From a virus: a stretch of DNA of 64,000 nt. Positions within the stretch are counted from its first letter, which is position 1; each line of letters opens with the position of its first letter. Where the stretch lies: IMG/VR virus record IMGVR_UViG_3300045988_177228, positions 1 through 64,000 of that record; one strand, 5' to 3'. This document shows, piece by piece, positions 3,740 through 53,717 of this stretch. The notes under the pieces are model-generated. The model did not search any database. It had not been told where the DNA came from and worked only from the letters and a program-made list of their open reading frames with translations. The position numbers and the translations under genes were made by a program.

Positions 3740-3816
3740 CGTTTGGATAAACATACAAAACAAGACACGTCCACACAAAAAGCCCCGCCAAAACGACGGG
3801 GCCACAATCCTGAAAA

Positions 3817-4017
3817 CTAACGATTCATACTCAATCGAACTTCAACCGCGACGGTCAGCAACACCACCGTAATGGCGCACACGGATACGATACCGAACGT
3901 GCGGCCAAACGTGAACAGCCAAGTGCCGAACGAGTAGATGCCGAACGCGACTGCGGTTGCCACCCCACCGAAAGCGATGGTGACAAGCGTCATAAGCAGA
4001 ACATCCTTGATATGCAT
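3817..4017 (-). CDS. small membrane protein (66 aa, two TM helices)
   Basis: ATG 4017 with aaaggagaaaa RBS after M1-box 4057-4078. Hydrophobic throughout. Confidence 0.5.
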   Translation of the reverse strand: MHIKDVLLMTLVTIAFGGVATAVAFGIYSFGTWLFTFGRTFGIVSVCAITVVLLTVAVEVRLSMNR

Positions 4018-4541: not shown

Positions 4542-5036
4542 CTATTCTTCCTCGCCATCCGCCTGACGGAGTGGAACGATACGGTTCCACTGTTCCGTGT
4601 ATTCATTCTCCACATCCTTGGAACCATTGTCCAGCAGTTCGTTCAAAGTGGCTCGTCCTACGTCGCTGAGACGGCTGATGCTGCGGAGAATGCTCGCCAC
4701 GTCGTCGGCTTCGTATAGTTTATTGCGATTGTCCGACAGTTCCTGATACTTCGAGTCGGTGAGGTTCCAAACATAGTCTTCCAGCAGTTTCCAGTCCTCC
4801 TTTTCGGCAGAGGGTACTGGAATCGGCTTGGTGAGCCGCCAATCTTCGAGAATGTCCGCCCAAAGGTCGGTCTTGACATTGTATTCGCCAAGGTCTTCCT
4901 CGTGGGTGAGTTTTTCGATTCGCTGTTCTTCGCCATCCTCGTCCAAGTAGTCTATTGTGAGATATTCCCTATCCACTGACAAGGTGGAGAGTTCGCGTAG
5001 TTTGGTGATTTTGAGGTTGACGATTGTGTTAATCAT
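4542..5036 (-). CDS. very acidic hypothetical protein (164 aa), candidate DNA-mimic/anti-restriction-type protein
   Basis: ATG 5036 with caaggagg RBS after M1-box 5068-5090. About 30% D/E. The ArdA-like idea rests on size and charge only, no motif match. Confidence 0.55.
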   Translation of the reverse strand: MINTIVNLKITKLRELSTLSVDREYLTIDYLDEDGEEQRIEKLTHEEDLGEYNVKTDLWADILEDWRLTKPIPVPSAEKEDWKLLEDYVWNLTDSKYQELSDNRNKLYEADDVASILRSISRLSDVGRATLNELLDNGSKDVENEYTEQWNRIVPLRQADGEEE

Positions 5037-6729: not shown

Positions 6730-7887
6730 ATGACCAATCCGTTCAAACCAACCGCCGGACGTATCCCGCCGATACTCGTCGGACGAGAAGAAATCATCGA
6801 AGACTTCGACTATGCGCTGAAAGACGGTGTAGGAAGCCCCGGACGGCTGATGTTCCTCACCGGAGCCAGAGGCGTAGGAAAAACAGTCATGCTGGACACG
6901 TTAGGAACACACGCGCAGAAGCAAGGCTGGAAAGTCTATAACGAAAGCGCCGATAGAGGTTTCACCCAAAGACTGGTGGACGCACTTACCGGCAAGGACA
7001 CGACTCGCATATTCGCCTACGACATGCCTAGCGTCGGATTGAAAGGTGATGTAGGGAATCTGGAACTGAGTTTGGGGAGAATCGAACTCGAACACAATGA
7101 GGAACGTTCCTTGACGCTACGTCAAGCGGTCGGCAAACGTTTGGACAAGATAAATGAAAGCAAGCAGGGCATTCTCATCACGTTGGATGAGGTGCAGTCC
7201 GGTTCCATGGACGAAATCAGAGCACTGTCCACCGCAGTGCAGCATCTCATCCGGGAAGGACGGAACATCGCGTTCGTTTTCGCCGGACTGCCGTCCGCAG
7301 TGAACGACGTGCTGTCCGACAATGCCATCACTTTCCTGCAACGGGCGGAACGATACCATTTGGGGTCTGTCCCCACGGAAAAGGTATTGAAGGCGTTCGA
7401 GGAATCCTTCAGCGGCGAGAAGAAAGCCGGAATGGAAACGCTGATACGGTTGACCAACGCCACTCACGGTTATCCGTTCATGATTCAGCTGGTGGGCTAT
7501 TGGGCTTGGCGGATGTCCGAAACCAACGGTCATGTGAATCAAGTGACCGAGGAGGACGCGGTCAAGGGTATCGAAAAAGCCCAAGCCAAACTAGGGGATA
7601 TGGTTCACGCCCCAGCATTGCATGGCTTGCCATCCCATGCGGTGAACTATCTACTTGCCATGTCGGTGGATGATACGGTGTCGAATACAGGTGAAATCGC
7701 CCGTCGGTTGAACCGTTCGCCACAGTTCGCCAACGTGTATAGAACCAAGCTGATTGAGAACGATTTGATTGAGCCGGTCGGTTACGGTGAGGTCGCTTTC
7801 AAAATGCCGTATTTGCGGGATTACTTGCGTGAGCATGGGGCTTATTTGCAGATGCGGGAGAATATCAGCGAACGCTCGGAGAACTAG
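6730..7887 (+). CDS. AAA+ P-loop ATPase with C-terminal winged-helix (ATPase_2/DUF234-like)
   Basis: Walker A LTGARGVGKT, Walker B ILITLDEVQ, C-terminal wHTH-like region. AT-rich promoter tataattattataaaatcaaggaaacagacATG. Confidence 0.8.
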   Translation: MTNPFKPTAGRIPPILVGREEIIEDFDYALKDGVGSPGRLMFLTGARGVGKTVMLDTLGTHAQKQGWKVYNESADRGFTQRLVDALTGKDTTRIFAYDMPSVGLKGDVGNLELSLGRIELEHNEERSLTLRQAVGKRLDKINESKQGILITLDEVQSGSMDEIRALSTAVQHLIREGRNIAFVFAGLPSAVNDVLSDNAITFLQRAERYHLGSVPTEKVLKAFEESFSGEKKAGMETLIRLTNATHGYPFMIQLVGYWAWRMSETNGHVNQVTEEDAVKGIEKAQAKLGDMVHAPALHGLPSHAVNYLLAMSVDDTVSNTGEIARRLNRSPQFANVYRTKLIENDLIEPVGYGEVAFKMPYLRDYLREHGAYLQMRENISERSEN

Positions 7888-7994: not shown

Positions 7995-9002
7995 CTATCC
8001 CTTGTGCGTTTTCTCATACCATTCCACGAATCCCAGCATGGCTTGCTGGAATGATGGTTTGAATTCGCCGTTTACGGGAATGTTTCTGTTGAGTGGTGTG
8101 GTCTTATAGTTTTCCGGTAAGGGTGTGGCGCACCATTCGGGTGGTATCCGGTCGGTGAATGGTTCCTCGCAATCGTCGCTGAACATGAGTCCTACGGGCT
8201 TGCCGTTGAGGAGGATTGTTGCGTGGGGGCTGATTTGTCCTTTCGCCAACCGGTATTCTCCTCTTGTCGTGTGTATTGGATAGTGGAAGGTTTCAGGTAG
8301 TCCTCCCCGCCGGTATTCGTCGCGTAATAGTCGAATCGGATTATAGAAGCGTTCCAATGCGGGGTATGCCCATTCGCATCCGCTCCAACAGTCGCGTACC
8401 CTGTCCATTCCGTCCCAATGTTCTTTCGGATTGGGTTGGATGCTGAGTTTGCGGTATCGGTCGGTTTGGCACCAGCGGGTGGGATTGTTCAGGGCATAGT
8501 TCGGCGTGGTTTGTTCGGCTAACCGTATGAGAGTGCCGAGGGTGCATGAAGCATAATGTTGCTTGTCGTATCGTGCGACAAGCCGATACGGGTCGGCATC
8601 ATCCTTGTTAAACACAGGCTTCAACACGCGTAAATGTTCCTCCGTTACGGGAATATCAAGGTCGGCTGGTAAACCCAACACTTCCATCCAACCTCCAAGC
8701 CTGTTCGTATCCCACTTGTAATCCTTGCAGTATTGCGCTTGCAACAGCCAAACCATCCAACGGCGCACATTCCGCATCAGTACGGGATGGGACGCGAATT
8801 CGAGAGGACGCCCCAGCATGTCATGATTCACATTATCCGGCGTGGTAATACTGGTTCGATTACCGTACTCGTCCACTGCCGTCACGACGATATTGTGTCC
8901 GGCGTCCACAGCCTTGAACATGTCGCTGATGTTGTCTTCCACGAACGTGGGCGGAATGAGACGCGACTGGACTTGACCATTAATCGGCACGGAGAGCATC
9001 AT
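7995..9002 (-). CDS. hypothetical protein (335 aa)
   Basis: Long ORF, GC3-rich coding pattern, start overlaps stop of the upstream gene (8999/9002). Confidence 0.65.
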   Translation of the reverse strand: MMLSVPINGQVQSRLIPPTFVEDNISDMFKAVDAGHNIVVTAVDEYGNRTSITTPDNVNHDMLGRPLEFASHPVLMRNVRRWMVWLLQAQYCKDYKWDTNRLGGWMEVLGLPADLDIPVTEEHLRVLKPVFNKDDADPYRLVARYDKQHYASCTLGTLIRLAEQTTPNYALNNPTRWCQTDRYRKLSIQPNPKEHWDGMDRVRDCWSGCEWAYPALERFYNPIRLLRDEYRRGGLPETFHYPIHTTRGEYRLAKGQISPHATILLNGKPVGLMFSDDCEEPFTDRIPPEWCATPLPENYKTTPLNRNIPVNGEFKPSFQQAMLGFVEWYEKTHKG

Positions 9003-9610
9003 TCACCATCCTCACTATTAGAGGCGAGTCGGGTTCGGAGTTCCCTCAACCGGCCTAACCGTTCCTCCATAGCCTGAATACGAACGTCAACCGCAGTCAA
9101 CGTGTCACCATCCGGCTCAGACAACTCATACTTGCCGGACGACAGTCGTTCCAGAAAACTGGTTGGAACATCCCATACCAATAATCGGAGTTTGTCGGGA
9201 CTGAGATTCAACCCCGTGTACAAGCCGGTTTTAGGCCACATGCCATCTACGAGAGCCACATTCGGCATCATGCGCGGTGGACGGTCGGGCTGATATTTTT
9301 CGACTAGGATTCGACCAGCGAACCAGATAATGTCGCTATCCTGCTTGGAGTACGCGTACAAGTAGTCGTAGGGGTCGATGGTGACTGTGACACGCTTTTC
9401 AGCGTCCACGCCCTTATGCCACCAGAAGTATTTGTCTAAAGCTTCGAACACCAGCCTTTCCACACGAACATTGAACGTCCAAGTCTTCAACTTGTCATCA
9501 AACGTTCCACCCAACGCGCGGGAGCGACGGGCGAACAACGGATTATACGGAGCCTTAACCTTCAAACGGCCATCACTGCGAGTGACCGTAATATCATCAA
9601 AACCTGCCAT
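8999..9610 (-). CDS. hypothetical protein (203 aa)
   Basis: ORF with aaggaaactgtcATG RBS at 9610. Confidence 0.65.
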   Translation of the reverse strand: MAGFDDITVTRSDGRLKVKAPYNPLFARRSRALGGTFDDKLKTWTFNVRVERLVFEALDKYFWWHKGVDAEKRVTVTIDPYDYLYAYSKQDSDIIWFAGRILVEKYQPDRPPRMMPNVALVDGMWPKTGLYTGLNLSPDKLRLLVWDVPTSFLERLSSGKYELSEPDGDTLTAVDVRIQAMEERLGRLRELRTRLASNSEDGE

Positions 9611-9854
9611 GACAGTTTCCTTTCACTCAAACGGCATACTCTGACCAATGCGCTGATAACCTCTAAAGCCCCACATGGGCGAAGTCCCGAGGAAGGAAAT
9701 GCAAGTAAACCCAGTGTAACACCAAGCCGGGAAGAAAAACTAGCCGACAAGCATGCCGATGTGAAATACGATGCAATCCAAGCCGCACGAAATCTCATCC
9801 AACGCTTCCAGCAGATTACGCCCCTCCACCACACAATCTGGAAAGTCAGGAATA

Positions 9855-11009
9855 TCACGGGTGAAAAGCCAGCTTCCGCATTTCACAATGCCTCCGATAC
9901 CACGCTTTCTCCCGAGCGCACAGTCCACGACGGTGAGTTAGACCCGACAGTGTGCTCTCATGGCTCGTCCAAGAATCCTGAACTGTCCGCAATCCCACAT
10001 GCACGCCATCATATGAGCGGATAAGGTTACGCGCATGCCGTCGGCTTGCACGCAACGCCTTATGGTGCATGCGGATAAGAATACTGCCGTCATCCTGTAC
10101 ACTGTATACGCGTTTCAGGAATGTGAGTTGACCGGTATGACAGTCCACTATGCGGGTCTTATGCTTGTTCAACCGCAATCCCAATTGATTGACACGCCAC
10201 TCATAACCGGCCAGCACACGTTCAGCCTGTTCACGATTCTTGCAGAAACAGTAGGCATCGTCCATGTACCGTCCGTAGAATCCTTGCGACATGCACCAGT
10301 GGTCAACCTTGTTCAAATACCAGATAGCCATGGTTTGGCTCGTCTGATTACCTAACCCTAAGTGAGGTTCGTCCAATACGAAGATTCTCAATACGGTTAG
10401 AATCCGTTCCACATCCTGCTTCTCCCGTCCGGTGCGGGCGATGCTCCGGTACAGGGTGGAAATCATATCGAACGCGCGTTGGGAGCTGATACTGCCGAAA
10501 TAGTTGGAACAGTCGAATATGACAGCATACGGATGCTCCCATTTACCCAAAGCCCGCTTATAGTGTAGTTCAAACCGTTTTCGGGCGAACGATGTTCCAC
10601 GTTTCGGAAGGCTCGCCGCATTATCATATATCAGTTGGCTTTCCACGATGGGGACGAGACTGTTGTCGCATAAGGCGCGTTGCACCACCCGGTCTCGGAA
10701 GGATACCGCGCTGATGTGGCGGAGTTTGCCTCGTTCGGAAATGTCGAATCGGATTGGCGCTCTCTTCTTGTATGTGCCGTCCTCTAATTCTTGTGCGAGT
10801 TTCCAACAGTTGACGGCACGCCTATTGTCGAAGTTCAACGCTGTGTTTTTCCACGTGACGCCGCGTTTGCATTTTCTTGCGGCTTGGTAGAGCGCGTCGA
10901 ATCCGAATGTTTGTTGGAAGTCGATGTAACGGTGGAGCTTCCTGTACTTATCATCCGAGCGTTGTTGCAGTCTGCGTTGGCGTCTTCTACGTCTTTGACT
11001 CGCATTCAC
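9855..11009 (-). CDS. diversity-generating retroelement reverse transcriptase
   Basis: RT motifs including YMDD. DGR-specific LGLGNQTSQ in place of QGxxxSP. Likely GTG start at 11009 with gaaggaag RBS (longest ORF reaches 11084). Immediately 3' of TR. Confidence 0.85.
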   Translation of the reverse strand: MNASQRRRRRQRRLQQRSDDKYRKLHRYIDFQQTFGFDALYQAARKCKRGVTWKNTALNFDNRRAVNCWKLAQELEDGTYKKRAPIRFDISERGKLRHISAVSFRDRVVQRALCDNSLVPIVESQLIYDNAASLPKRGTSFARKRFELHYKRALGKWEHPYAVIFDCSNYFGSISSQRAFDMISTLYRSIARTGREKQDVERILTVLRIFVLDEPHLGLGNQTSQTMAIWYLNKVDHWCMSQGFYGRYMDDAYCFCKNREQAERVLAGYEWRVNQLGLRLNKHKTRIVDCHTGQLTFLKRVYSVQDDGSILIRMHHKALRASRRHARNLIRSYDGVHVGLRTVQDSWTSHESTLSGLTHRRGLCAREKAWYRRHCEMRKLAFHP

Positions 11010-11278
11010 GATTTTAATGCTTCCTTCACTAGGGAAAGAGAAAAGAATGGTTGAGGGCAGGTCGTCGGCAACAACCCAAGACATGCAATGATGTTGGACG
11101 CCCAGCTTAAGGGGCGAGTATCCGTCGTTTCCGACAGTCTTAATATCTCCCTCAACCTATTTCACACGCAACCCATTTTTCGAGGGGCCGCGCATTCGAC
11201 CATATCCCCTTCCCCTTCGGGAGGCTTTCACCCATTGGGCTACTGGCCTATCTGATGTTAGTTTTTGGTAAGAGGAAT

Positions 11279-11430
11279 CGGGGACAACGGAGTAGCGATT
11301 GTTAGCATTGTTGTTGTAGCTGGGGTCACCGTTCGAGTTCACTTGGAGGAAATTGCCGCTGTTGTTCGGGTTGGGCGAACGCTCCCACCAATTGTTGTTG
11401 TTGGCACCGGAGGGTGCTGAACCGGAAACG
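11279..11430 (-). repeat. DGR template repeat (TR)
   Basis: 152 bp, identical to 12069-12220 except 14 positions, all T on the plus strand (A on the coding minus strand). Coding strand rich in AAC/AAT codons. Confidence 0.85.
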
Positions 11431-11465
11431 GAAACACCATTTTGGATATGGCCGGTTTTGTTTAG

Positions 11466-11987
11466 TTATATTTGGGGTTGAACCCAAGTGTCCATTCTAG
11501 TGGTGGTCTTTGACTCGACGGTTTTGGCTTTCTTCAACTGGTCTCGCTCGTATCGGACTGCCCCCGTGAACACCCCCATGGCTTTGTAGAGTGTGCCCGC
11601 ATAGTTGACAAATTTCTTCTCCTTGATTACGGGATTGTAGGTGGGGTCGCCTTCCTGACTGTTCTGGTAGGCTTTCATGTCGCGTTCTCGTGGTGGATAG
11701 TCTATCCAGTCGTCTACGAGGCCGGAGAGTGCGTTCAGCATTCCTTGGGCCTTGCATAAGAGTTGCAGTTTCATCTTATGCTCTTCGAGGGTGCTCGCGT
11801 AGATGGTGTCGGCGCTGTAGGCGGCTGTGTACATGTCGTAGGCGATGTGCATGACGTGTATGGTTTCGATGTTGTCTCGGCTTTTGGGCCATTTCCGGAA
11901 GAGGTTTCTGGTGGCGTAGAGTACGATTCTCGCTTGGTTCGCATATTCGCTTTTTGCTTTTGTCCGCTTGCTGGCGGGTACTGTCAT
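11466..11987 (-). CDS. putative Avd-like accessory variability determinant (173 aa, basic, helical)
   Basis: Position between target VR and TR as in canonical target-avd-TR-RT cassettes. Lys-rich helical protein. No direct motif proof. Confidence 0.45.
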   Translation of the reverse strand: MTVPASKRTKAKSEYANQARIVLYATRNLFRKWPKSRDNIETIHVMHIAYDMYTAAYSADTIYASTLEEHKMKLQLLCKAQGMLNALSGLVDDWIDYPPRERDMKAYQNSQEGDPTYNPVIKEKKFVNYAGTLYKAMGVFTGAVRYERDQLKKAKTVESKTTTRMDTWVQPQI

Positions 11988-12053
11988 AGGGGCTTCTTTC
12001 GTGTGATGTTTTAGCGGGGGTGGGGATGAACCCCACCCCCTAAAGATGGGGGA

Positions 12054-13019
12054 TTAGAAGGAGAAAGCGGGGACAACGGAGTAGCGATAGTTAGCATAGT
12101 AGCCGTAGCTGGGGTCACCGTTCGAGTACACTTGGAGGAAACTGCCGCTGTTGTCCGGGTCGGGCGAACGCTCCCACCAACGGTTGCTGCCGGCACCGGA
12201 GGGTGCTGAACCGGAAACGGTTTCGTAGATTCCAGACAGAATATTATTGTTTGAATAGTTGTGCATCACCTTGCCTTGGAAATACTCGTATTGGCTTCCC
12301 TCCTGACTTAACGCTTGGAATCCATTAGAGCTTTTCCACCCGTCGTATATGGTTGGTACGAGTTCCCTGTAGGATACGAGCCATACCTTGTCTGCTGTGG
12401 CGGATGCGGCGGAGCCGGAAGTGTTTCCGTAGTCCATGTTGTTGGTTTGTTTCAATACGGTGGTCACGTTGTTTTGGAAGTCGGTGGGGAATTGGTTCCA
12501 GATTTCCCCATTGTTCATCCATTGACGGAGATTACTGTCGCGCCATCCGCCCTTGTTGGTGTAGCCGTTCGTGCAGGTGGTCGTGTTGTCGGTTGGCATG
12601 ACGCCGTTTATGCAGTACGCTTTCGGTAACGCGTTCCATGCCATGAACGTCAAGCCAGCCTTTTTGCCGCTACCATCAGCCTTGTCGTCGTGGAGGATGC
12701 CGATGAGCCGGAATGGAAGATTGGAACCGTCCGACAGTGTGAGCGAGCCTTGCGTGCCCTTAGTCAGATTATCCTCCATTTCCGCATAGTAAGCGCTTCC
12801 CTTGCCCTTGTCGCTCAAATCGTCGGCAATCTGCTTCAATCCTGCGGCGTTGTAGCCCGCATAGCAGACCTTGTCCACGCCGGTCGAACATTTGGCCGGT
12901 TCCGAAGCGATGGCGCTACCGGTGATGAGTCCGCCGCAGACCGCCGCCACGATGGCGAGGGTGGCGAGGATTCGTTGTCCCAAGTGGCGGTTCACACGGT
13001 TACTGGCGTGCATGCCCAT
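12054..13019 (-). CDS. DGR variable target protein, secreted/surface (signal peptide, C-terminal VR)
   Basis: ATG 13019 with aaaggaac RBS (GTG at 13034 overlaps adhesin stop). Hydrophobic N-terminal signal LATLAIVAAVCGG. C-terminal 50 aa encoded by VR ...QVYSNGDPSYGYYANYRYSVVPAFSF. Confidence 0.8.
   Translation of the reverse strand: MGMHASNRVNRHLGQRILATLAIVAAVCGGLITGSAIASEPAKCSTGVDKVCYAGYNAAGLKQIADDLSDKGKGSAYYAEMEDNLTKGTQGSLTLSDGSNLPFRLIGILHDDKADGSGKKAGLTFMAWNALPKAYCINGVMPTDNTTTCTNGYTNKGGWRDSNLRQWMNNGEIWNQFPTDFQNNVTTVLKQTNNMDYGNTSGSAASATADKVWLVSYRELVPTIYDGWKSSNGFQALSQEGSQYEYFQGKVMHNYSNNNILSGIYETVSGSAPSGAGSNRWWERSPDPDNSGSFLQVYSNGDPSYGYYANYRYSVVPAFSF
12069..12220 (-). other. DGR variable repeat (VR) at 3' end of target gene
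   Basis: Aligned to TR it shows 14 substitutions, T to A, C or G on the plus strand, all at TR adenines of the coding strand. Flanks diverge at both ends (IMH-like 3' boundary at 12051-12068). Confidence 0.85.
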
Positions 13020-13030
13020 TTTTGTTCCTT

Positions 13031-16000
13031 TCACTTACGGTCTTCCTTTCTCAACAGGATGATTGCGGTGACGAGTCCCAGAATGCTGACGAGTATGAGG
13101 ATTGGCAACAGTAAGCCCATGCCGGTGTGGGGCATGCTCATCATCCATGTTTCTGGTAGGACGCCCGCGTCCACATTCTCCTTGTCCGGCTTATCCTGTG
13201 TGAGGATGATGGTGAACGTGGATTCACCGTACTTGTCGTCGCTCGTGTTCGCGTCGGAGTCGGTGGAACTCGCGTCATTCGGAATGTCCATGTCGTTCGC
13301 ATCCGGCTTGGTGAACTCTTGGTGGGTGACGCGGCTGAATTGGATGGTGTACTGGTCGCCGTCCGCGTCCAAGTGTTCGAACTTGTACTTGCCGTCCTTG
13401 TCGGTCTTGGTGGATGCCACCTGCTTGCCGTTCTTGTCGTACAGGATTACGGTCTGGTTGGCGAACCGGTTCGACTCGTTGTCGCTTCGAATACCGTCCT
13501 TGTCCGTGTCCTCCCAATACAGGCCGCTGATGGTGCCGAGTTTCTTCGCGCTGGTGGTTGGTGTGATGATGGTGCCGACTTGGTCGCAGGAGTCTTCGTC
13601 GCTGGTGCTGAACCAGTGTTGGTGTCCTTCCTCCGTATAGTCGGTGTCGGTGCGGCATGTCGGATTGCCGGTCACGTCATTCGTGTTCGTATCCAGTTTG
13701 GATGCGTTCGGAGGGTCCGGCTTGGTTTTGCCGCTTGCATGTGGCGTGCCTGAGTATGGCGTGTGTTCGGAGGTGAACCATGCTTGGTTGAGAATGGTCT
13801 TCGTATTCTTCTTGACCCACTCGTCTTTCTCAGTTGGAGACCACTTGGTAGTATCCGCAGTTTCACGGTCAACGGTGCCAGTGAAATGGTAGATGACATA
13901 GCCGCCCGACTCAATCGCATACGGCAGATTGTACGTGCGGGTCGTCAACCCCTTCTCCGTGGACTCGCTCAACGGTTCGACCGGTACGGCGGTCGGGTCG
14001 GACGATACGACCATTCCCTTCAAACCGGTGGAACGTGCGCCACCCGTCTTGCCGTCACCATACGGGTCGAAGCCCGCAATCATGACCTGCTTGCCGACAA
14101 TGAGCACGTCACGGTCGCCGCCCGCAACGTCGGATGCGGTAATGCCCGTATCGATTGGCGTGGAAACAATATCCGCGTTGCCGCTCGTACTGCCGTTGGT
14201 CCAATACCTGCCTGTACCGGTCTTACCGTTCGCTAATTGGCCGTCACCATTCCAGCCAGCCGCCCACAAGTGTTGGTTCTTGTCGATGGCGTAGAAAGTG
14301 TTGTATCCGCCACCGATACGGGTGATGTACCTCAGATTAGACACATTGGACTGGCCGATACCGCTATCACCTCCGCCGACGAGCACTATCACTGTACCCG
14401 CGTCAGTCAACCCGTAGGCGTTGCCGAATGAGGCGACAACTTGCGTGAAACCAATAGAGAAAAACTCGTCGCCGTCCACCACACAACCGCCGTAGGACGT
14501 CAACGCGACCCACCTGTACGTGCTGGCGCTGACCTGCGTGAACGTCTTACCCGACTGGATTTGCGTCCACGTTGAATACGAGGTGGAACTGACTTTTCCG
14601 ACCACCCACAAGGTGCCGTCACTTGCTATCGCCACAGTGAACTGGTTGCCGCACGCCACGTCAACAAACGTCTTATCTTCTGCGACTAGAGTCCACTGGT
14701 CACGATTATCCGTATCACCCGTACCCAATTGGCCTTTACCGTTCCAACCAGTCGTGTACAAGTGGCCGTCCGTGCTGATGGCGGCGGAATGCTTGCCACC
14801 GGCGGCGACTTTCAGCCAACTACCGTTGACGATGGTCGGCTTGTTCACGTTCGTTGGGGTAGCGGTATTCGTCGTGTCAGGCTTGAAACCTAATTGACCA
14901 TACTGGTTGTTACCCCACGCATACAACAAGCCCTCGTTCGTCAACACAAACTTATGGTCGCCACTCGTCGCAACCTGCTTCGCACCACCAGACTCGATAG
15001 AAACCGTACCGGCGGTAGCGGAAACATCATGCACGTCGGCGCTCATACGGTCAGAAACGACACTGGAAGTATCAAAACGACTAGTGCCAGAATTCTGTAC
15101 TTTGACATCCCAGTTGATGACGCATTTCGTATCGGTGCAACTGGTGCCGGTGACGGTTTTGTCCACGGTGGCTTTCGGGTCTGGTTTCGCATACCCGTAG
15201 TCCACGTTCTTCTGGTCTGCGCCGATGCCTAGGTGGATGTCGTCGGACGTGTCTTTCGCGTTGGACTTGATTTTGTTCGACCAGCTTCGCGTGTTCGTCA
15301 CGTTTTCGAGCTTGCCATAGTAGGTTTTGACCTGCGTCTGCACGCCATCACCCGTACTGGTGCCAGTGTTGCGTTTCACCGAAGTACGGTAGGTGCCGGA
15401 GTGGAGCAGGTTGAACTCGTAGTAGCCGTCCTTGTCGGTCTTCACCGTTTTGACGGCCTGCCAGCCGCCGCTTGAATCCTGCTTGCCGAGGGTGACTTCC
15501 ACTCCTTCGATACGTTCTTCACTGTCACCGATGAGCGTGTTCTCATCCTTATCCCACCAGACGGTGCCGCTGATGCTACCGGCCACTACCTTCGCCACGT
15601 CAGGCCACGGCTGGTTGCCCGCCGGTTTGTCGGAAGCGTCGGAATAATAGTTACGGCCAAGCCACAGCGTGTACTTGTCGTCTTTCACATTGTCGGATGG
15701 GGTGAGCGTGATGGCGCCGTTCACCGCCGAATAGGACAGTTTATCGTCGGACGCGACGACTGTGCTGGTCAGTCGGATGGCGATGATGTTCTTCTTCTCG
15801 ATGGAGGACAATTCATCCCATGTCTTCCACTCGTAGTCAGCCGGATTATCCGACTTCTTTCCGGTGGTGGTTGAATAGTAGACGGTCGTACTGGTCGAAT
15901 TGTCCATATTGACCGTGACGGGCTGGGTCAGTTCGTAGGAGCCATGATAGTTGCTGTATCCACGCTCATATTCGACCAGCTTGTCCTGCACGTACTTCTC

Positions 16001-18421
16001 ATCACCATTCGCAGGAAGCAGTAGCATGCTATCCATGGTGCCGGTATGTCCGCCGCCCTTGCCGTACACGTTGAACTCCCAAGTAAGCGGGTCACTGATT
16101 TCAGCCTTCGTGGTCTTCACACGCATGATGCCACTGTTGGTTTCCGCATTGGAGACAGGGAATGGGACGCTGGGCGTATTGCTTTTGATGGTTTGGGCTT
16201 GCAATGCGCCGTTCTCGTCAACGTCCACGCTCATATTCGCACTGGCGGTCACAGTCCCGGTGGCGAGATTGGATACGATGCCACTGAAATGCAGGTCAGG
16301 CAAAGTGGCCGACCCCATACGGTCTACTTCCGGCGTGACTTTGCCGGAACGTGGCGTGAACACGAGATTATTCCCGTCCACTTTCATCTGCCAGAACGAA
16401 TCATCACAGGTCGGATTGTACAAGCCTTTCGGTTTCGGCACCGTGATGGTCGGCGTCATGCTCGTATTGGACAGGAGAATGGTGCGCAATTGTTCCGTGA
16501 CCGTATAATCCACTCGCATGCCGGGAGTCAAATCGACTGCGCTTCCGGACGGGTGATTGGAACTGTTGTTCGCATACACTTGATTGCCTTCACCATCGTA
16601 GGCTTTTAGACTGATGTCGATACTGGTGGTCGGGTCTACCGGCTTGGCAATCCACACCCAATTGGTGACGCTCGCCTTATCGTCTTCGGTAAGCCATGCG
16701 GTCAGCGTATCCAAAGCTTCCACATTGCCTTTGGACACGTCGGCTATGGCGAGCGTGTTGAACGTGACCTGAACGTTCGGCGCACCCTTTCCCAAAGTCA
16801 AAGTGTCGGGGTTGAACGTCACCCGAATCTTCTTGACGTTCGGAGCGTCTGTGTCGGATGGTTCCCCGTCATGCCAATTGTCTTTGCTATCATCCCATTG
16901 AACTTTGTAGTCGGAAACCGGAGCGCCGTTCTGGGTGACTTCCAAGCTTCCATCCCACCGCATGCGCGTATTATCCCACTCGTCCTGCATGGTCGGCGTA
17001 GTGTTTTTAAGCTTGTCCGCCGTAACGTTCGCCGCATACATTTCCAAAATGGTTTTGACTTGCGTTCCACGGGACACGGTGTCGCCGGAACCGTCGGAAT
17101 AGTAATGGTAGATGTCAGCTTTGCCTTCGGCGGCGTCGAACGTCAGATTCTCCTTGTCGAACATGGTCTTGGACGCAGTGTTAGGACGTTGCAGTCCTTT
17201 GCCGAACAGTGGAATCTTGCCAGCTGGAGTCGGCTTGAGCCGTTGGATGATGGCTCGTGACCAGTCATTGTTCGCATACGGGTAGCCTACGCGGGCACCC
17301 GTATCCTTGTCGTAGGTGCTCTTGTCCCGTCCAATGTTCCAGCCGGGTTCGCCGCCCTTGCCCATGTTCAACAGTGCGTCGCCGTTATCGTCTTTGACAC
17401 TGAACACGGTTTCGTCGGGAACAAGGTGGACATCGTAATATTTGACGTCTCCTTCTTTCATGTTTTTGAGCGCGTCGGTTCCGGCGGGAATCCTGTAGCT
17501 GATTGTCGCCGCCGCACCGTTTTTGCCACTGGATACGGTCAAATACTGTTCTTTATCACTGTTACGGGTAATCCGCTGACCGCCTACAGTCCACACGGTG
17601 CCCTGCGGGAAGTCGGAAATATCCACTTTGGTCGTCCAATCGATGCTGGTGGACGCGCCCTTCGTGGACGAATAACCCGGATAGGTCAACGTGTCGGCAC
17701 GAATAGTGAAATCGCCGGTCGCGTCGGTGTTCTGACTCCAATAAGTACGATGCTCATACGAGTATTGGCCTTTCACCGGATTGCCGCCATTGTCAATGAC
17801 CAAGTCAGCCGCCGGAGCGGATACTACAGTCAACTCATCCGTACGATACGTGGTTGACGTTCCACCTTCGCGGGCGACGACGATTTTCGGAATCTGACCC
17901 GGCTTGACCAAGCCTCCCGTGTCTTTTGCTTTCAGATAGAAGGTTTGGGTCATGGTTTCCACGCCACCGGCTGGAACCGTGTAGGAGCAGGAGCCGTCAC
18001 TGTTTTTCTTTGCGGTGACGAGTTGTCCCGGCTGGCAGAAGCCACCACCGTCAGCAGTCTGCAAATACGGTGCGTCGTCCAAGTCGAACTTCACGTTGAT
18101 GGTGCGTTTGCCCGCCGCGTTGAAGTTCAACGTCAATGAATATTCGACCGTATCACCGGATGCGACCACGCCATCGGTAGGGGAATCATCGCCCGTGGCG
18201 AACCCGTTCTTCGAATTCACGAACGTTTGAGAACTCGTGCCATGCCCCGTACCGTCGGCTTTCTTAACGATTTTCGCAGTAGCATACGCGGGTTTCAACT
18301 CGTCCGCATGCGCTGTCGGAGAAGCCACCGGATTGGTCATGCATGTCAGGCCGGATGCCAGTGTGGCGATTGCGGCCAATAATGCTACCGGATGTGCCAC
18401 ATGCTTTTTGAGAATACTCAT
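13031..18421 (-). CDS. large cell-wall-anchored adhesin (1796 aa) with RCC1-like propeller repeats and Cna-B/SdrD-type domains
   Basis: Signal peptide. RCC1 repeats (WGNNQYGQLG, GWNGKGQLG). SdrD-B/CnaB-like DKDGYYEF and DKDGKYKF. C-terminal sorting signal MPHTG plus hydrophobic stretch plus RKEDRK. Confidence 0.85.
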   Translation of the reverse strand: MSILKKHVAHPVALLAAIATLASGLTCMTNPVASPTAHADELKPAYATAKIVKKADGTGHGTSSQTFVNSKNGFATGDDSPTDGVVASGDTVEYSLTLNFNAAGKRTINVKFDLDDAPYLQTADGGGFCQPGQLVTAKKNSDGSCSYTVPAGGVETMTQTFYLKAKDTGGLVKPGQIPKIVVAREGGTSTTYRTDELTVVSAPAADLVIDNGGNPVKGQYSYEHRTYWSQNTDATGDFTIRADTLTYPGYSSTKGASTSIDWTTKVDISDFPQGTVWTVGGQRITRNSDKEQYLTVSSGKNGAAATISYRIPAGTDALKNMKEGDVKYYDVHLVPDETVFSVKDDNGDALLNMGKGGEPGWNIGRDKSTYDKDTGARVGYPYANNDWSRAIIQRLKPTPAGKIPLFGKGLQRPNTASKTMFDKENLTFDAAEGKADIYHYYSDGSGDTVSRGTQVKTILEMYAANVTADKLKNTTPTMQDEWDNTRMRWDGSLEVTQNGAPVSDYKVQWDDSKDNWHDGEPSDTDAPNVKKIRVTFNPDTLTLGKGAPNVQVTFNTLAIADVSKGNVEALDTLTAWLTEDDKASVTNWVWIAKPVDPTTSIDISLKAYDGEGNQVYANNSSNHPSGSAVDLTPGMRVDYTVTEQLRTILLSNTSMTPTITVPKPKGLYNPTCDDSFWQMKVDGNNLVFTPRSGKVTPEVDRMGSATLPDLHFSGIVSNLATGTVTASANMSVDVDENGALQAQTIKSNTPSVPFPVSNAETNSGIMRVKTTKAEISDPLTWEFNVYGKGGGHTGTMDSMLLLPANGDEKYVQDKLVEYERGYSNYHGSYELTQPVTVNMDNSTSTTVYYSTTTGKKSDNPADYEWKTWDELSSIEKKNIIAIRLTSTVVASDDKLSYSAVNGAITLTPSDNVKDDKYTLWLGRNYYSDASDKPAGNQPWPDVAKVVAGSISGTVWWDKDENTLIGDSEERIEGVEVTLGKQDSSGGWQAVKTVKTDKDGYYEFNLLHSGTYRTSVKRNTGTSTGDGVQTQVKTYYGKLENVTNTRSWSNKIKSNAKDTSDDIHLGIGADQKNVDYGYAKPDPKATVDKTVTGTSCTDTKCVINWDVKVQNSGTSRFDTSSVVSDRMSADVHDVSATAGTVSIESGGAKQVATSGDHKFVLTNEGLLYAWGNNQYGQLGFKPDTTNTATPTNVNKPTIVNGSWLKVAAGGKHSAAISTDGHLYTTGWNGKGQLGTGDTDNRDQWTLVAEDKTFVDVACGNQFTVAIASDGTLWVVGKVSSTSYSTWTQIQSGKTFTQVSASTYRWVALTSYGGCVVDGDEFFSIGFTQVVASFGNAYGLTDAGTVIVLVGGGDSGIGQSNVSNLRYITRIGGGYNTFYAIDKNQHLWAAGWNGDGQLANGKTGTGRYWTNGSTSGNADIVSTPIDTGITASDVAGGDRDVLIVGKQVMIAGFDPYGDGKTGGARSTGLKGMVVSSDPTAVPVEPLSESTEKGLTTRTYNLPYAIESGGYVIYHFTGTVDRETADTTKWSPTEKDEWVKKNTKTILNQAWFTSEHTPYSGTPHASGKTKPDPPNASKLDTNTNDVTGNPTCRTDTDYTEEGHQHWFSTSDEDSCDQVGTIITPTTSAKKLGTISGLYWEDTDKDGIRSDNESNRFANQTVILYDKNGKQVASTKTDKDGKYKFEHLDADGDQYTIQFSRVTHQEFTKPDANDMDIPNDASSTDSDANTSDDKYGESTFTIILTQDKPDKENVDAGVLPETWMMSMPHTGMGLLLPILILVSILGLVTAIILLRKEDRK

Positions 18422-19326
18422 TAGTGTTCCTTCTTTGCGTGGTTTTTTCTACGGATGATGAGAATGGTGATGATGATTACCGCAAGCCAGAAGCCGCCGA
18501 CGTACAGTATGAGCCATTGGTTCGTGTGGTCTTTCGGCGCGTTTTCGGGTTTGGGTGCGGGGTGTGGCATGCTGGCGCGCGTGCCGGTCACTAGGAGTCG
18601 CTTGTTGTTGATGCCGTATGGCGTGCAGGTTAGGAGTGTGGCGAGGTCTTTTCCTGTGACGATTTTCAGTTTAGAAAAGTCGGACGGGTCTACCACATTG
18701 ATGCTCGTGACCTTGTAGGCGAGCGTATGTCCGGCGGTTATCAGATAGAAGACGTCACCTTTTTTGGCTTCACTGCCGAAGCCGCGTAGCTTGTCGAACA
18801 TGAGCTGGTCGGCCAAACCCGTATGCGCGGATATGACAGTATGCGTGTTCTTGCCGCCGACGGGGAGACTGGAACCGTATAAGTGTCCGGCTCCAGCGGC
18901 CAACACGTTTTGCGACGTGCCATGCCGGATGGGCAGGTTGATGCCCAAGCGTGGATATTTGATGGTAGCCATGACCCCATCCTTGGGGGTGGATAGTTGC
19001 TTCCGATACGTGTTGTCCGTTTCGGACTTGTTGACGCCCGTCCAAGGGTCTTCCGCCTCACCAAGAATGGGCTGACCCTCCTCGTATAGGCGTTGATTGT
19101 AGGCTTTCGCGTCCGCATACTCTTGGGCGATTCGTTTCACGTCAGTGTTTTCCACGGCTTGCGCGTGGGAGTCAGTCAACCGGTTGGATTGGCTGCTATT
19201 CGAAATCATGAGGATGAATGGGATGGTTCCGGACAGGGCGGATAGGATTAGGCAGAGGAGTCCCGCTATGGCTCGATTTCCCAAGCCTTTCGGTTTCGCC
19301 GTATGTTTTCCCAAAACCCCTCCCAT
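18421..19326 (-). CDS. class C (pilus-specific) sortase
   Basis: TLLTCTPYG catalytic Cys motif, conserved His region, N-terminal signal/TM and C-terminal TM anchor. Confidence 0.85.
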   Translation of the reverse strand: MGGVLGKHTAKPKGLGNRAIAGLLCLILSALSGTIPFILMISNSSQSNRLTDSHAQAVENTDVKRIAQEYADAKAYNQRLYEEGQPILGEAEDPWTGVNKSETDNTYRKQLSTPKDGVMATIKYPRLGINLPIRHGTSQNVLAAGAGHLYGSSLPVGGKNTHTVISAHTGLADQLMFDKLRGFGSEAKKGDVFYLITAGHTLAYKVTSINVVDPSDFSKLKIVTGKDLATLLTCTPYGINNKRLLVTGTRASMPHPAPKPENAPKDHTNQWLILYVGGFWLAVIIITILIIRRKNHAKKEH

Positions 19327-19443: not shown

Positions 19444-21135
19444 TCACGCCTTGCGACGAAGCAGCAGGGCGGAAGCGCCAGCCAACAGGACGGTCATCAC
19501 GCCGAAGATGGACAGCCAGACCGCACCGGTCTTCGGCATGTCGGCAATGTTACGGGCGTTGATGACGGTCACACCCAGATGGTCGGCGTTCTCGGAAGCC
19601 AGATTGTTGGCGTCCTTATCGAACTGACTGAGCGTGTAGGAGCCGTTCGATTGGTTCACCTTGATGGTCAGGGTGAACTGCGGCAGGATGGAGCCATTGA
19701 ACGGACTCTTTGTCTCCTTGACCGTGTACTTGCCGTCGAGACCAGTCAGAGTGAGCACGCCATTGCTAGTAGCGACGCTGGTGACGGTGTCGGTGGTGCC
19801 GGTGCTCTCGGTCAGGTCGGCCTTACGGTACGTATTGTCGTTCACCTTGATGAACTTGACCGGAGTGGCGGTCTGGTTGCCCTCGTACACCTTGAACTCA
19901 GCTCCGGCGAGCGGCGCGTTGTTCGTGTCGTGCTTGGTGAGGGTGAACTTGCCGACGTACACCTTGTCGGTCTGGCCCGGAGTGGTCTTATGGTCGGTGA
20001 CAGTGTTCGGGTTGTGGGAGTATTCGACGTTGTTGGTGTTGGTGTCGGCGGTGCCGGAGACGGCGTTCTTGTTCACATACATGTCGTAAGTGACTTTGAC
20101 GGCGGCATCGACCGGGAACTTGGCTTTCATCGCCACGATGTCGGATGCGGTGGTGGAGTCACCGGTGGTCGGAGCGAAGATGATGTGGAACTTGCCATCC
20201 TCAGTAGTGACCTTGTAATCGGTGTCGCGGATGAGGGTCTTACCGTCCACGGTCACGACCATGTTGTCCTTGGCCGCGTCATAGGTCAGGCCCTTGGAAT
20301 ACGTATCGTTGATGGCGTAATAGTACTTGTCGTAGCCAGTCCAGTTCGGCACTTTGCTGGTCATTTCGAAGCTGACCTTCTTGCCGATAGCGGTTTCGGC
20401 GGTCGCGCCACTGTTTTCGACGGTGCCGTTTTCGGCGGCGGTAATCTTCTTCGTGACGGTGGTGCTGTGTACCTTATAGTTCACGGTGCCCAGTGTGTAG
20501 GTCTTGGCGCCGTTCTTCAACATAGTCTTGCCGTCGATGCCAGTGCCGTTGAACATGACGATGGATGCCTCGCCCTTGACGGTGGTGTCCACTACCGCAT
20601 ATACGCCCGGACGGACGGATGCGGTCATGTGCTGGGCGTCGGCGCCCTTGGCGAACGCGGTGCCCTTGTCGCCGGTGACGGCGGTCTCGTTCTTCAACTG
20701 GTCGAGGAAGTCACGAAGCTTGCCAGCCCACGGACTGTTCTCGGAATCAAGCAAGTTCTGTACGACCCACACCATCGGATTGGACGCATTATAGTCGTAT
20801 CCGGCAGTCTGGTCTTTCTTGGACTTGGTGTCGATATTGGCTTTAGTCAATGCGTCAGCGATAGCAGAAGCCTTGCCCGCGTCAATCAAGTCAAAGCCAG
20901 TAATATTAGTACCATCAGTCTGCGCATACGAATAGTAGGCGAGCGGCACAGCCTTCAACGTGCGATTGCTAATATCACCATTAGCAGTGACGGTCAACGT
21001 CTGACGAGCAGCCGCACCAAGCTTGGATGCGTCAACACGAGCATCAGCCGCCATGGCGGAGCCGACTCCAGCCAAACCCATGGCACCGGCCACAAGCGTG
21101 GCGACCGTTGCCTTCAACAGGTTTTTGGTTTTCAC
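19444..21135 (-). CDS. sortase-dependent major pilin (SpaA/FimA-like)
   Basis: Signal peptide. E-box YTVKETKSP. C-terminal MPKTG plus hydrophobic plus RRKA sorting signal. GTG start with ggaaaggaaaac RBS. Confidence 0.8.
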   Translation of the reverse strand: MKTKNLLKATVATLVAGAMGLAGVGSAMAADARVDASKLGAAARQTLTVTANGDISNRTLKAVPLAYYSYAQTDGTNITGFDLIDAGKASAIADALTKANIDTKSKKDQTAGYDYNASNPMVWVVQNLLDSENSPWAGKLRDFLDQLKNETAVTGDKGTAFAKGADAQHMTASVRPGVYAVVDTTVKGEASIVMFNGTGIDGKTMLKNGAKTYTLGTVNYKVHSTTVTKKITAAENGTVENSGATAETAIGKKVSFEMTSKVPNWTGYDKYYYAINDTYSKGLTYDAAKDNMVVTVDGKTLIRDTDYKVTTEDGKFHIIFAPTTGDSTTASDIVAMKAKFPVDAAVKVTYDMYVNKNAVSGTADTNTNNVEYSHNPNTVTDHKTTPGQTDKVYVGKFTLTKHDTNNAPLAGAEFKVYEGNQTATPVKFIKVNDNTYRKADLTESTGTTDTVTSVATSNGVLTLTGLDGKYTVKETKSPFNGSILPQFTLTIKVNQSNGSYTLSQFDKDANNLASENADHLGVTVINARNIADMPKTGAVWLSIFGVMTVLLAGASALLLRRKA

Positions 21136-22766: not shown

Positions 22767-24107
22767 TCAGAACTCGTTTTCGAAGTCTGCGGCCATGTCC
22801 GCGAATTTGGAGCATTCGCCCATGAACGCGAGATTGAACGTTTCGGTAGGCCCGTTGCGATGTTTGGCGAGAATCACGTCGGCTTCGCCCGGACGTTCCT
22901 CACGGTCGTAGTATTCGGGACGATGCACGAGAAACACCATGTCGGCGTCCTGTTCGATGGAACCTGATTCACGTAGGTCGGACAGTTCCGGCTTCTTGTC
23001 GGCACGCTGTTCCGCATTACGGTTCAACTGGGACAGCACGACCACTGGGCATTGCAGTTCCTTGGCGAGCATTTTGCATTGGCGGGAGAAGTTCGACACT
23101 TCCTGCTGACGGTTCTCGACGGTTTTACCGGAGGACATGAGTTGCAGGTAGTCGATGACGATAAGCTTCAACCCGTTGACCTTGCGGCTGAGCGCGCGGC
23201 ATTTCGCACGGATGGTGCTCATGTTGATGATGGCGGAATCGTCAACCCACAAGGGTGCCTTCTCGACCTGATAGCAGAGCGCGTTAAGCTTGTTCCAATC
23301 ATTCGAGTTCAGATTCTCGGGATGTTGGAATGATGCGAGACGGATGCCCGTTTCGGCGGCGAACATGCGTTGCATGAGTTCGTGACCGCCCATTTCCAGA
23401 CTGAAAATCACAGTCGGCAGACCCTTGTGTAGTGCGGCGTTGCGTGCGAAGTCCATACCCAACGTGCTCTTGCCCATGCCCGGACGACCGGCCACGATGA
23501 CCATTTGTCCGGCTTGCAGTCCGTGCGTCAACGCGTCGATGTCGCGGAAGCCGGTGGGTGTTCCGAACTCGGTTGGGTTCTGTGACATTTCATCCAACTG
23601 TTGGAGCATTTCGTCGGACAGGCGGTATGCGGTCTTCAACTCGTCGTCTTCGGAACGGCTTGAATCCTCCAACGAGAACGCGGCCTCCAACGACTTGCGG
23701 AGCACGTCTTCGGCGGAAGCGTCGGACACGTTGCTCATCTGTTGCAACTGTTGTCCGACCACGTTGATGTGGCGGAGGATTGCCGCGTCACGAATCTGCT
23801 TGATGAAATAGTCACTGTTGTTCGACGTGGGCGCGGAGCCGACAAGCTGGGCGATGTAGTCGATGCCGCCGACCTGTTCCAGCTGTCCGTTGTCCATCAT
23901 GTGTGAGGACAGCATTTGCGCGTCCACACGGTTATTGTCTGCGGCCAGTTCCTTTATATTGTGGAAGATGGTTTGGTTGGTCGGCTGGTAGAAGTCCTCT
24001 TCGGAAAGTTGGCCGATGACCTTGTCCAACGTTTCCGAGTCTTGAAGCATGGCCCCCAACAATACTTGTTCGGCCATATCCTTGTGGATTGGTGTGGGGA
24101 CGCTCAC
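22767..24107 (-). CDS. dnaB: replicative DNA helicase DnaB
   Basis: N-terminal DnaB domain, Walker A GRPGMGKST, RecA-like C-terminal domain LVHRPEYY. Confidence 0.9.
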   Translation of the reverse strand: MSVPTPIHKDMAEQVLLGAMLQDSETLDKVIGQLSEEDFYQPTNQTIFHNIKELAADNNRVDAQMLSSHMMDNGQLEQVGGIDYIAQLVGSAPTSNNSDYFIKQIRDAAILRHINVVGQQLQQMSNVSDASAEDVLRKSLEAAFSLEDSSRSEDDELKTAYRLSDEMLQQLDEMSQNPTEFGTPTGFRDIDALTHGLQAGQMVIVAGRPGMGKSTLGMDFARNAALHKGLPTVIFSLEMGGHELMQRMFAAETGIRLASFQHPENLNSNDWNKLNALCYQVEKAPLWVDDSAIINMSTIRAKCRALSRKVNGLKLIVIDYLQLMSSGKTVENRQQEVSNFSRQCKMLAKELQCPVVVLSQLNRNAEQRADKKPELSDLRESGSIEQDADMVFLVHRPEYYDREERPGEADVILAKHRNGPTETFNLAFMGECSKFADMAADFENEF

Positions 24108-43959: not shown

Positions 43960-44196
43960 TTTTTGTTCGGCGGTAAAAACAAAAGAAGGCCGTATCCGTT
44001 TCATCGCGGACGCGGCTTTCTGTTTTTCTGTTCCGCCTGTAAACTTGTACGCCGTTCAACTGTTTTACTGGAATGTTTCTCCGAACGGTTTTCTGGTTCG
44101 GCGTGCCGACTTTTCGCCGTTGTTATCATCGAAACAAAAAGACATACCCCCACCATGATTCCGTCCACACCGGAAGCAGAAAAAGGAAACCAGAAC

Positions 44197-53273: not shown

Positions 53274-53717
53274 TTGGACGAACAATCCTCCACCCAACGT
53301 TTCCGTGTTCTCATGGCCGGTATCAGCGAAGGTGAGACCAGAATCCTCTACAACATCGAAAAAGGAAGGTTGACCGCCGACATTCTCAAAAGCAACATCG
53401 GCAGACGACTGCTGGATGCCGGACTCATCCGACGTAACGGGCAATCGGCCCCGTCCCTCACCAAGGATGGCATACGTCTCGTATCCACGCTCGCCCAAGG
53501 CGAGGCAGACCGTCCAATCCGACTATACGAGCGCAACGGCGAAACGCTGCTCCGCCAAGCCGGACAGGGAACGGCCAACGCATACAAGACCGGTTTCGAA
53601 AACGCCGCCATCGAACTGCTGAACGACAAGCTGGTTCGCCTCGACATCGCAACAGGTGCTCTGACGCTGCTTCCTGCGGGACGGGAACTATTGGAACGAC
53701 TGGAGCAGACGTCTTGA
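53274..53717 (+). CDS. hypothetical protein (147 aa)
   Basis: gaaaggagcagcaTTG start. Confidence 0.5.
   Translation: MDEQSSTQRFRVLMAGISEGETRILYNIEKGRLTADILKSNIGRRLLDAGLIRRNGQSAPSLTKDGIRLVSTLAQGEADRPIRLYERNGETLLRQAGQGTANAYKTGFENAAIELLNDKLVRLDIATGALTLLPAGRELLERLEQTS

Follow-up and report, generated by a model that had tools for sequence, protein, structure and literature searches.

The window analysed here is a 64,000-nucleotide (64-kb) stretch of DNA, positions 1 to 64,000 of the IMG/VR virus record IMGVR_UViG_3300045988_177228, from a human gut metagenome. Between positions 9855 and 13034 it carries, all on the minus strand, a target gene, an open reading frame (ORF) of 173 amino acids (aa), a template repeat (TR), a 194-nt spacer and a gene for a reverse transcriptase (RT). 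This order and the strand arrangement are identical to mtd-avd-TR-brt in BPP-1, a Bordetella phage, as annotated in NC_005357, which bears out the likeness claimed in a sequence-only reading of the stretch that preceded our analysis. Very probably, the locus is a BPP-1-type diversity-generating retroelement (DGR) with all its parts, one that has been active in natural populations.

The TR (11279-11430, minus strand) and the variable repeat (VR, 12068-12219, minus strand) are each 152 nt long and were compared without gaps at an offset of 789. The sequence-only reading had set the VR at 12069-12220, which is one base off, and the resulting offset of 790 gives no repeat. In the correct register its count of 14 mismatches was reproduced. 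All 14 are T in the TR on the plus strand, that is A on the minus coding strand, and the plus-strand letter of the VR at these sites is A in four cases, C in nine and G in one. At the 112 TR positions that are not adenine, the VR shows no difference. With 40 adenines in the 152 nt of the TR, 14 random mismatches would all fall on adenines with a probability of 1.1e-9 (hypergeometric). Such a near-repeat, with differences at TR adenines only, is what defines the repeat pair of a DGR.

The VR corresponds to codons 268-317 of the 321-aa target (12054-13019). Read in the frame of the target, the TR contains 15 AAC or AAT codons (AAY) and is translated as ...NNNN..N.NN..N...N.N...NNNANN..., and the protein end encoded by the VR reads ...YGYYANYRY. 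The earlier description of a TR rich in AAC and AAT and of a VR ending in GYYANYRY was therefore accurate. A search of both strands of the 64-kb window with the adenine-masked TR, at full length and in 60-nt pieces, found no third VR-like copy or remote target.

Protein components of the retroelement

The RT gene (9855-11084, minus strand) encodes 409 aa; an alternative GTG start at 11009 gives a 384-aa form, which gene callers chose on some contigs. As had been read from the sequence before, the protein carries the motifs LGLGNQTSQ and YMDD. It matches Pfam RVT_1 (E 4.9e-13) and phrog_1423 (E 3.5e-55), and its best match among all PDB sequences is the BPP-1 bRT 8ub7_A (E 2e-13, residues 50-375). 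In this alignment LGLGNQTSQ is paired with IPIGSLTSQ and YMDD with YMDD. The BPP-1 and window RTs align over their full length with 27% identity, and IGxxxSQ and YMDD are present in both. Models for group II intron, retron and Drt RTs gave partial matches only, far under the curated cut-offs (for the group II intron model, 86.7 bits against a cut-off of 300 bits). PADLOC returned generic RT-domain matches for the RT and none for the neighbouring genes. When the RT was used as a tblastn query, known phage DGR RTs were found at 26-33% identity, together with cyanobacterial plasmid RTs; the best plasmid match adjoins an annotated 'DGR protein Avd'. The (I/L/V)GxxxSQ and YxDD motifs, the PDB match and the model scores all point to an RT of the DGR type.

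Between the target and the TR lies the 173-aa ORF (11466-11987, minus strand), which the sequence-only reading had taken for Avd from its position. At the sequence level this assignment failed in every search. The ORF had no match in Pfam, NCBIfam or the PDB sequences. An exhaustive HMMER search of 1.84 billion representative proteins returned just 27 relatives, and the profile built from them reached an hhalign probability of 0.1% against BPP-1 Avd. None of 19 members of the 173-aa family matched the Avd-type Pfam family (PF05635-type). At the fold level the assignment stood. The AlphaFold model made from the alignment of the relatives is confident (predicted local distance difference test, pLDDT, 90.2) and shows four long helices, the third and fourth of them separated by an insert of about 25 residues. 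The computed isoelectric point is 9.4, against 9.6 for BPP-1 Avd, so that the description of the ORF as basic and helical also held. We conclude that the 173-aa protein is an Avd by its predicted fold, a small basic four-helix bundle, and by its place between target and TR, and that it represents a family missed by current sequence models. Because four-helix bundles are common, this is the weakest of the component assignments. Annotation that relies on an Avd sequence model will under-call complete DGRs.

The target gene (12054-13019, minus strand) starts with the ATG at 13019, which is preceded at a distance of 7 nt by an AAAGGA ribosome-binding site, and a GTG lies further upstream at 13034. 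Its product matches the DUF6273 domain (PF19789) in Pfam with an E value of 3.5e-18. DUF6273 has been reported as a C-type-lectin-like target domain of DGRs that carries the VR at its C-terminal end (PMC10743442, PMC11792537). The structural model of the target (pLDDT 84.6; predicted template modelling score, pTM, 0.83; residues 1-37 disordered) and a fold search likewise indicate a C-type-lectin-like domain with the VR at the C-terminus, in agreement with this literature and with the fold proposed for checking in the sequence-only reading. The VR thus sits at the 3' end of a target ORF predicted to encode a C-type-lectin fold, one of the two folds (C-type lectin or Ig) associated with DGR targets. 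DUF6273 domains are also found in unrelated settings, such as the receptor-binding proteins of phages and an IgA protease, whose N-terminal domain is of this kind.

In the N-terminus of the target, basic residues are joined by a hydrophobic stretch, where Kyte-Doolittle values reach 2.0, and by an AIA|SE site. It resembles a Sec signal peptide, as had been noted, and the protein is probably exported. No LPXTG-type sorting motif is present in the target, which ends in ...RYSVVPAFSF; the C-terminal sorting signal, hydrophobic segment and basic tail that characterise a pilin of sortase-assembled pili were not found. Because it has no sorting signal, we read the target as neither a pilin nor a covalently attached one.

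Diversification among related loci and cis-acting features

The activity of the element was assessed by comparison with related loci. Six TR/VR pairs from different metagenomes were compared, those of the window and of the loci L013, L015, L017, L020 and L021. Across these, 100 of 103 mismatches lie at TR adenines; no two VRs are the same, and the TRs hardly differ from each other. The closest pair, L013 and L015, comes from different assemblies and aligns over 5,520 bp with 14 differences, all of them within the VR, and with none in the other ~5,370 bp. By this comparison, VR diversification is more recent than any other mutation across ~5.5 kb. The heterogeneity of the VR between isolates that had been put forward as a check is thus seen between loci, as is the confinement of mismatches to TR adenines.

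The same pattern is found at the protein level. In an alignment of 14 near-identical target proteins, the mean column entropy was 1.67 bits at codons with a TR adenine at position 1 or 2, 0.14 bits at the other VR codons and 0.06 bits outside the VR. Contigs with the exact 173-aa sequence number 989 and those with the exact RT 103, whereas the exact target is found on only 4-5. Sampled members of the 90% identity cluster of the target are distinct full-length variants. The look-up places the 173-aa protein in this same 1,229-member cluster, and the size of the cluster is therefore not a clean count of target variants. Our evidence for diversity rests instead on the aligned members and the DNA loci. 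From the comparison of loci, the element appears to undergo mutagenic retrohoming. A more distant sister element (L023), whose RT is 66% identical, has the same gene order and 22 A-specific mismatches.

The TR itself shows one irregularity. At about 11353-11358 the window TR reads AGC-GGC-AAT, with GGC where four of the five sister TRs (L013, L015, L017 and L021) have AAC, which amounts to two A-to-G changes in one codon; the window VR likewise has GGC. The fifth sister TR, that of L020, also has AAC at this codon, and its preceding codon is different. Either a change of the adenine type struck the TR itself, or a VR was copied into it by conversion. In both cases protection of the TR is not strict, and the window TR has lost one codon open to diversification.

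Two further irregularities were seen in other members of the group. In L023 the VR (pair at 3745-3930 and 4555-4735) exceeds the TR by 3 nt, or one codon, in a stretch of consecutive AAC codons; simple copying of a template is not expected to yield such an indel. The cluster members P0123 and P0002 are chimeras of VR and TR, with C-termini that read ...NNNANNRYSVVPDSSYQK..., which is encoded by the TR. They most likely reflect assembly collapse between the two repeats. Such repeat-collapse chimeras are a caveat for automated surveys of VR diversity.

Several features around the repeats resemble the elements that direct retrohoming. After the last variable adenine, the VR and the TR share the end CGCTACTCCGTTGTCCCCG, and their identity stops in GTTGTCCCCG. 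Past the shared end the flanks are CTTTCTCCTTC in the VR, which resembles an initiation of mutagenic homing (IMH) element, and ATTCCTCTTAC in the TR. A GC hairpin, GGGGGTGGGG-TTCAT-CCCCACCCCC, is located at 12016-12040 (minus strand), 13 nt past the target stop and 27 nt past the end of the VR. It has a 10-bp GC stem and a 5-nt loop, and its DNA fold of -13.9 kcal/mol (z -3.2) was equalled by none of 200 shuffles. No T run follows it, and the terminator scan did not call it a terminator. In L023 both the stem and the loop are kept despite different flanks, and the pattern of difference between the VR flank and the TR flank is kept as well. In BPP-1, a GC-rich VR end with the IMH, a differing IMH* at the TR and a downstream hairpin form the same arrangement. 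By this analogy, the GC-rich VR end, the differing TR flank and the hairpin of the window may act in target recognition, the VR flank as a putative IMH.

The spacer between TR and RT (11085-11278, minus strand) presumably forms the non-coding 'Sp' part of the DGR RNA and opens with an IMH*-like ATTCCTCTTACC at 11267-11278. Alignment of the spacers of four elements with RTs that are 50-100% identical revealed conserved blocks that persist where the RT is only 50-80% identical. One of them, AGGGGAAGGGGAU at 11204-11216 (minus strand), is predicted to pair with the 3' end of the TR (11271-11285). In these four diverged sequences RNAalifold gave a 13-bp helix with 98% of cells paired, against 55-75% in slid controls. 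Three pairs of the helix are compensatory. Rfam yielded no match to 9000-13500 at E values up to 1. Pairing between the TR 3' end and the spacer, by the priming adenosine Sp A56, is needed for self-primed cDNA synthesis in BPP-1 (PMC6182149). Because the helix predicted here lies at about the same distance as the Sp A56 site, it suggests that the element of the window may self-prime as BPP-1 does.

A terminator-like hairpin with a T run lies at 9744-9759 (minus strand), ~100 nt past the RT stop, and may mark the 3' end of the transcription unit. It was called by a consensus scan, in which the region has no more terminator-like sites than shuffled sequence.

The pilus operon and the carrier replicon

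A sortase-pilus operon ends with the target as its last gene. The sequence-only reading had left this out, and likewise that the element looks plasmid-borne. Upstream of the target, on the same strand, are genes for a backbone pilin with an MPKTG sorting signal (19444-21135; Pfam GramPos_pilinBB and SpaA), a class C sortase (18421-19326; Pfam Sortase, E 5.6e-22; NCBI name 'class C sortase [Bifidobacterium]') and a surface adhesin of 1796 aa (13031-18421), in which RCC1 and SdrD_B/Cna-B domains are combined with the sorting signal MPHTG. The stop of the adhesin gene lies 11 nt upstream of the target ATG. In both the pilin and the adhesin a membrane segment comes after the sorting signal.

The window shares the gene order pilin, sortase, RCC1 adhesin, DUF6273 with L004, L005, L006, L009 and L023, the recovered sequence of L023 starting inside the adhesin gene. 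Adjacency of the adhesin and the DUF6273 gene was counted in those sampled Bifidobacterium loci that reach far enough upstream, plus L009. The RCC1 adhesin is directly upstream in L001 (the window's contig), L004, L005, L006, L013-L015, L023 and L009. Among these loci are a B. pseudocatenulatum genome (L004), a B. moukalabense chromosome (L006) and Senegalimassilia (L009), which belongs to the class Coriobacteriia. By its conserved position in a sortase-pilus operon, the target is placed like an accessory pilus component. Since the four-gene module recurs, including in loci that lack a DGR, the DUF6273 protein is a conserved component of the operon, encoded by its fourth gene, and the DGR an optional addition.

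Two loci illustrate the absence of the DGR. In L004 (GCA_020526265.1) a deletion corresponds to window positions 11830 to 7838, so that the TR, the RT and genes downstream are gone, as is the 3' part of avd, of which a 52-aa remnant is left. In L006 (GCA_005405785.1) homology to the window stops 40 nt into avd, and the target is kept. Both look like cases in which the DGR was lost and the VR was frozen. An RT-only scan of species-representative genomes found none. When the target alignment was used for the corresponding scan, the only matches were in Senegalimassilia, at two Raoultibacter loci and at one CAG:552 locus, with no Bifidobacterium representative among them. It follows that the element is accessory and that the representative genomes lack it.

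Homologues of DUF6273 with 48% identity were also observed in chimpanzee and other gut metagenomes (L007 and L008), where they follow a backbone pilin and two small ORFs. This element encodes SSB and a 1,649-aa TrwC-type relaxase and has no DGR. Because it carries both pilin and DUF6273, modules of this kind also travel on conjugative elements without a DGR.

Downstream of the RT on the same strand are two ORFs of 203 and 335 aa (7995-9610, minus strand). Neither has a Pfam match, and one of them matches phrog_18108; the two proteins share one 90% cluster, so that here too cluster sizes are no clean counts of a single protein. They were deleted along with the DGR in L004. Because an IS200/IS605 pair replaces them in L016, they are probably not obligate parts of the DGR. 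An adjoining gene on the plus strand (6730-7887) encodes a STAND-like AAA_16 ATPase without a PADLOC match.

Proteins identical to those of the window carry the NCBI names Bifidobacterium adolescentis and 'MULTISPECIES Bifidobacterium', and the host looks like a member of the B. adolescentis group. The remaining genes with matches are of a plasmid-like set. DnaB (22767-24107, minus strand) is 52-54% identical at the aa level to that of pMP7017-type Bifidobacterium megaplasmids, its best plasmid matches; both the RT and the target are missing from these megaplasmids. The window also encodes two ParA-like ATPases (32941-34155 and 43963-44859) and a DNA methylase (53714-54670). An IS605 OrfB/TnpB with a Cas12f-like TNB domain (48491-49753, plus strand) adjoins a protein with a GmrSD_C endonuclease domain (49779-50804, plus strand), and TnpB copies are found near the DGR in L004, L016 and L022 as well. 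Many ORFs in the rest of the window match no family. A tRNA scan of the window found none, and no capsid, tail, terminase or lysis gene was seen among the scanned ORFs.

By megablast, the cassette had no nucleotide match in 50,697 phage records, and a 21-kb stretch had none among the plasmid records of PLSDB. Independent assemblies contain contigs of 221.5, 223.7 and 224.0 kb, and the longest contigs for several window proteins measure 218-232 kb. These contig sizes suggest that the carrier is a plasmid-like replicon of ~222 kb, represented by the contigs OLPC01000009.1, SKEL01000009.1 and ZHON19 scaffold_15.

Interpretation and comparison with known systems

On every testable feature other than recognition of Avd by sequence, the element is a DGR, and as a DGR in itself it is ordinary. 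Its setting is moderately interesting. Three points are out of the ordinary, namely a target inside a Gram-positive sortase-pilus operon, a divergent Avd family and an apparently megaplasmid-like carrier.

The observations fit the following course of events. A minus-strand transcript, which probably also covers the upstream pilus operon, would run through the TR and the 194-nt spacer. The RT, bound to the Avd-like four-helix-bundle protein, would then reverse transcribe the TR RNA, probably self-primed from the spacer block that pairs with the TR 3' end. C, G and U would be copied faithfully and misincorporation would occur opposite adenines. The mutagenised cDNA would replace the VR, guided by its GC-rich 3' end, the IMH-like flank and the GC hairpin downstream, and the IMH*-like flank would shield the TR. 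About 22 codons, 15 of them AAY, would be randomised on the ligand-binding face of the C-type-lectin-like DUF6273 domain. The AAY codons alone allow 15^15, or about 4e17, protein variants.

Other origins of the repeat pair have to be weighed against this account. An ordinary duplication, followed by chance or selected divergence beside an unrelated retron, group II intron or defence RT, could appeal to the weak partial matches of the RT to models of these classes. Those matches are far under the cut-offs, and the proposal is effectively refuted by the restriction of mismatches to adenines (p 1e-9 in the window, 100/103 across the six loci) and by the VR-only differences of L013 and L015. We also think it improbable that the element is a recently inactivated fossil in this strain, with VR differences left from past activity. 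Decay of this kind is visible in L004, with its 52-aa remnant, and in L006, where the target alone is left, and the window TR is short of one AAC codon. Against this, no ORF is disrupted here, the RT agrees at 100% identity with the form on 103 contigs, and where loci share RT and TR, their differences are confined to the VR. The idea that the cassette switches phage tropism, with a prophage DGR that would vary a tail-fibre or receptor-binding protein in the manner of BPP-1 and the Faecalibacterium phages, draws on the fact that DUF6273 targets have been described mostly in phages (PMC10743442, PMC11792537), on the 26-33% identity of the RT to phage DGR RTs and on the PHROG matches of some neighbours. 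We rejected it as very unlikely, given the scanned ORFs free of structural and lysis genes and the phage records free of a match. The flanking pilus proteins, DnaB, ParA and methylase form a plasmid-like set, and the same target occurs in pilus operons outside phages.

Most likely, the target acts as a variable binding module at the cell surface together with the pilus. More specifically, and as a tentative proposal, the DGR may diversify a lectin that belongs, as a non-covalently attached subunit, to a Gram-positive sortase-dependent pilus, the module being carried on a conjugative or plasmid-like element of ~222 kb. It is also quite conceivable that the target is a free lectin, secreted or in the cell envelope, that works independently of the pilus and owes its place in the operon to shared regulation or mobility. 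Its lack of an LPXTG-like or pilin motif would suit such a protein, as would the occurrence of DUF6273 in unrelated settings and the L007 gene, which follows a pilin and two small ORFs with no large adhesin. What speaks for the pilus is that pilin, sortase, the ~1,800-aa RCC1 adhesin and DUF6273 have been kept together across Bifidobacterium lineages with proteins 60-80% identical, and that the same module, with genes abutting or overlapping, is present in a different class (Senegalimassilia).

Several observations weigh against the reading of an active DGR that serves a pilus. The link between target and pilus consists of gene neighbourhood, and the target is devoid of a sorting motif. The TR is not absolutely invariant, as the GGC codon of the window against the AAC of its sisters shows. 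Activity is known from related loci rather than from reads or isolates of this exact strain. The spacer helix comes from four sequences, with all three compensatory pairs contributed by one of them (L024), and the fold of the whole TR-spacer RNA is no better than shuffled (z -1.07).

If the diversification of a pilus lectin is correct, it would be the first programmed hypervariation of a Gram-positive pilus-associated adhesin and a counterpart of the DGR type V pili of Bacteroides, and it would use an Avd family that current sequence models do not recognise. Members of the B. adolescentis group are abundant commensals of the human gut, and sortase-dependent pili are among their main colonisation factors. 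If rewriting of the VR continues, the bacteria could vary their binding specificity within a host, the ligand being a glycan, mucus, another microbe or an immunoglobulin. On a mobile element, the trait could spread. The element is also a compact, naturally active Gram-positive DGR and thus a possible source of parts for targeted mutagenesis in Actinomycetota.

Among known systems, BPP-1, the founding DGR, is the reference for gene order, RT motifs and the predicted priming helix, and it has in common with the window that substitutions are confined to adenines and that the VR is C-terminal in a target with a C-type-lectin-type fold. It is a phage with a tail-fibre target, whereas the element described here is not of a phage and its target is a protein with a predicted signal peptide in a pilus operon. 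The Avd of BPP-1 has 128 aa, against 173 aa here; the window protein has the insert and no detectable sequence similarity, and the four-helix-bundle fold is common to both. The BPP-1 spacer measures ~140 nt, against 194 nt here. Treponema denticola TvpA and Thermus aquaticus TaqVP, solved variable proteins of DGRs, are also among the closest known systems. The Faecalibacterium prophages Lelie, CP11, Roos and Pioen and the phages nd4 and nd12 share with the window a DUF6273 (PF19789) target with the VR at its C-terminal end, and their domains have been modelled as C-type-lectin-like (PMC11792537, PMC10743442). Those targets are receptor-binding or 'tentaclin' proteins of Bacillota phages, whereas here the element is cellular or plasmid-borne, in Actinomycetota, and linked to a sortase pilus.

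In our literature search we found no paper that joins DGR, sortase and pilus, and none on a DGR of B. adolescentis. The nearest concept found is the diversification of type V pilus adhesins in Bacteroides; the study of it does not mention Bifidobacterium or sortase and lists one unnamed Actinomycetota DGR group only (10.1101/2024.11.15.621889). That system is nevertheless similar to ours in that it belongs to a gut commensal, resides on a mobile element and has targets genetically tied to an adhesive pilus; as here, the DGR is present or absent and the VRs differ among related strains (10.1101/2024.11.15.621889). The difference lies in the pilus itself. In Bacteroides the DGR is associated with type V pili, whereas in the window it adjoins the genes of Gram-positive, sortase-assembled pili with isopeptide bonds, and its target is not a pilin, to judge from its C-terminus.

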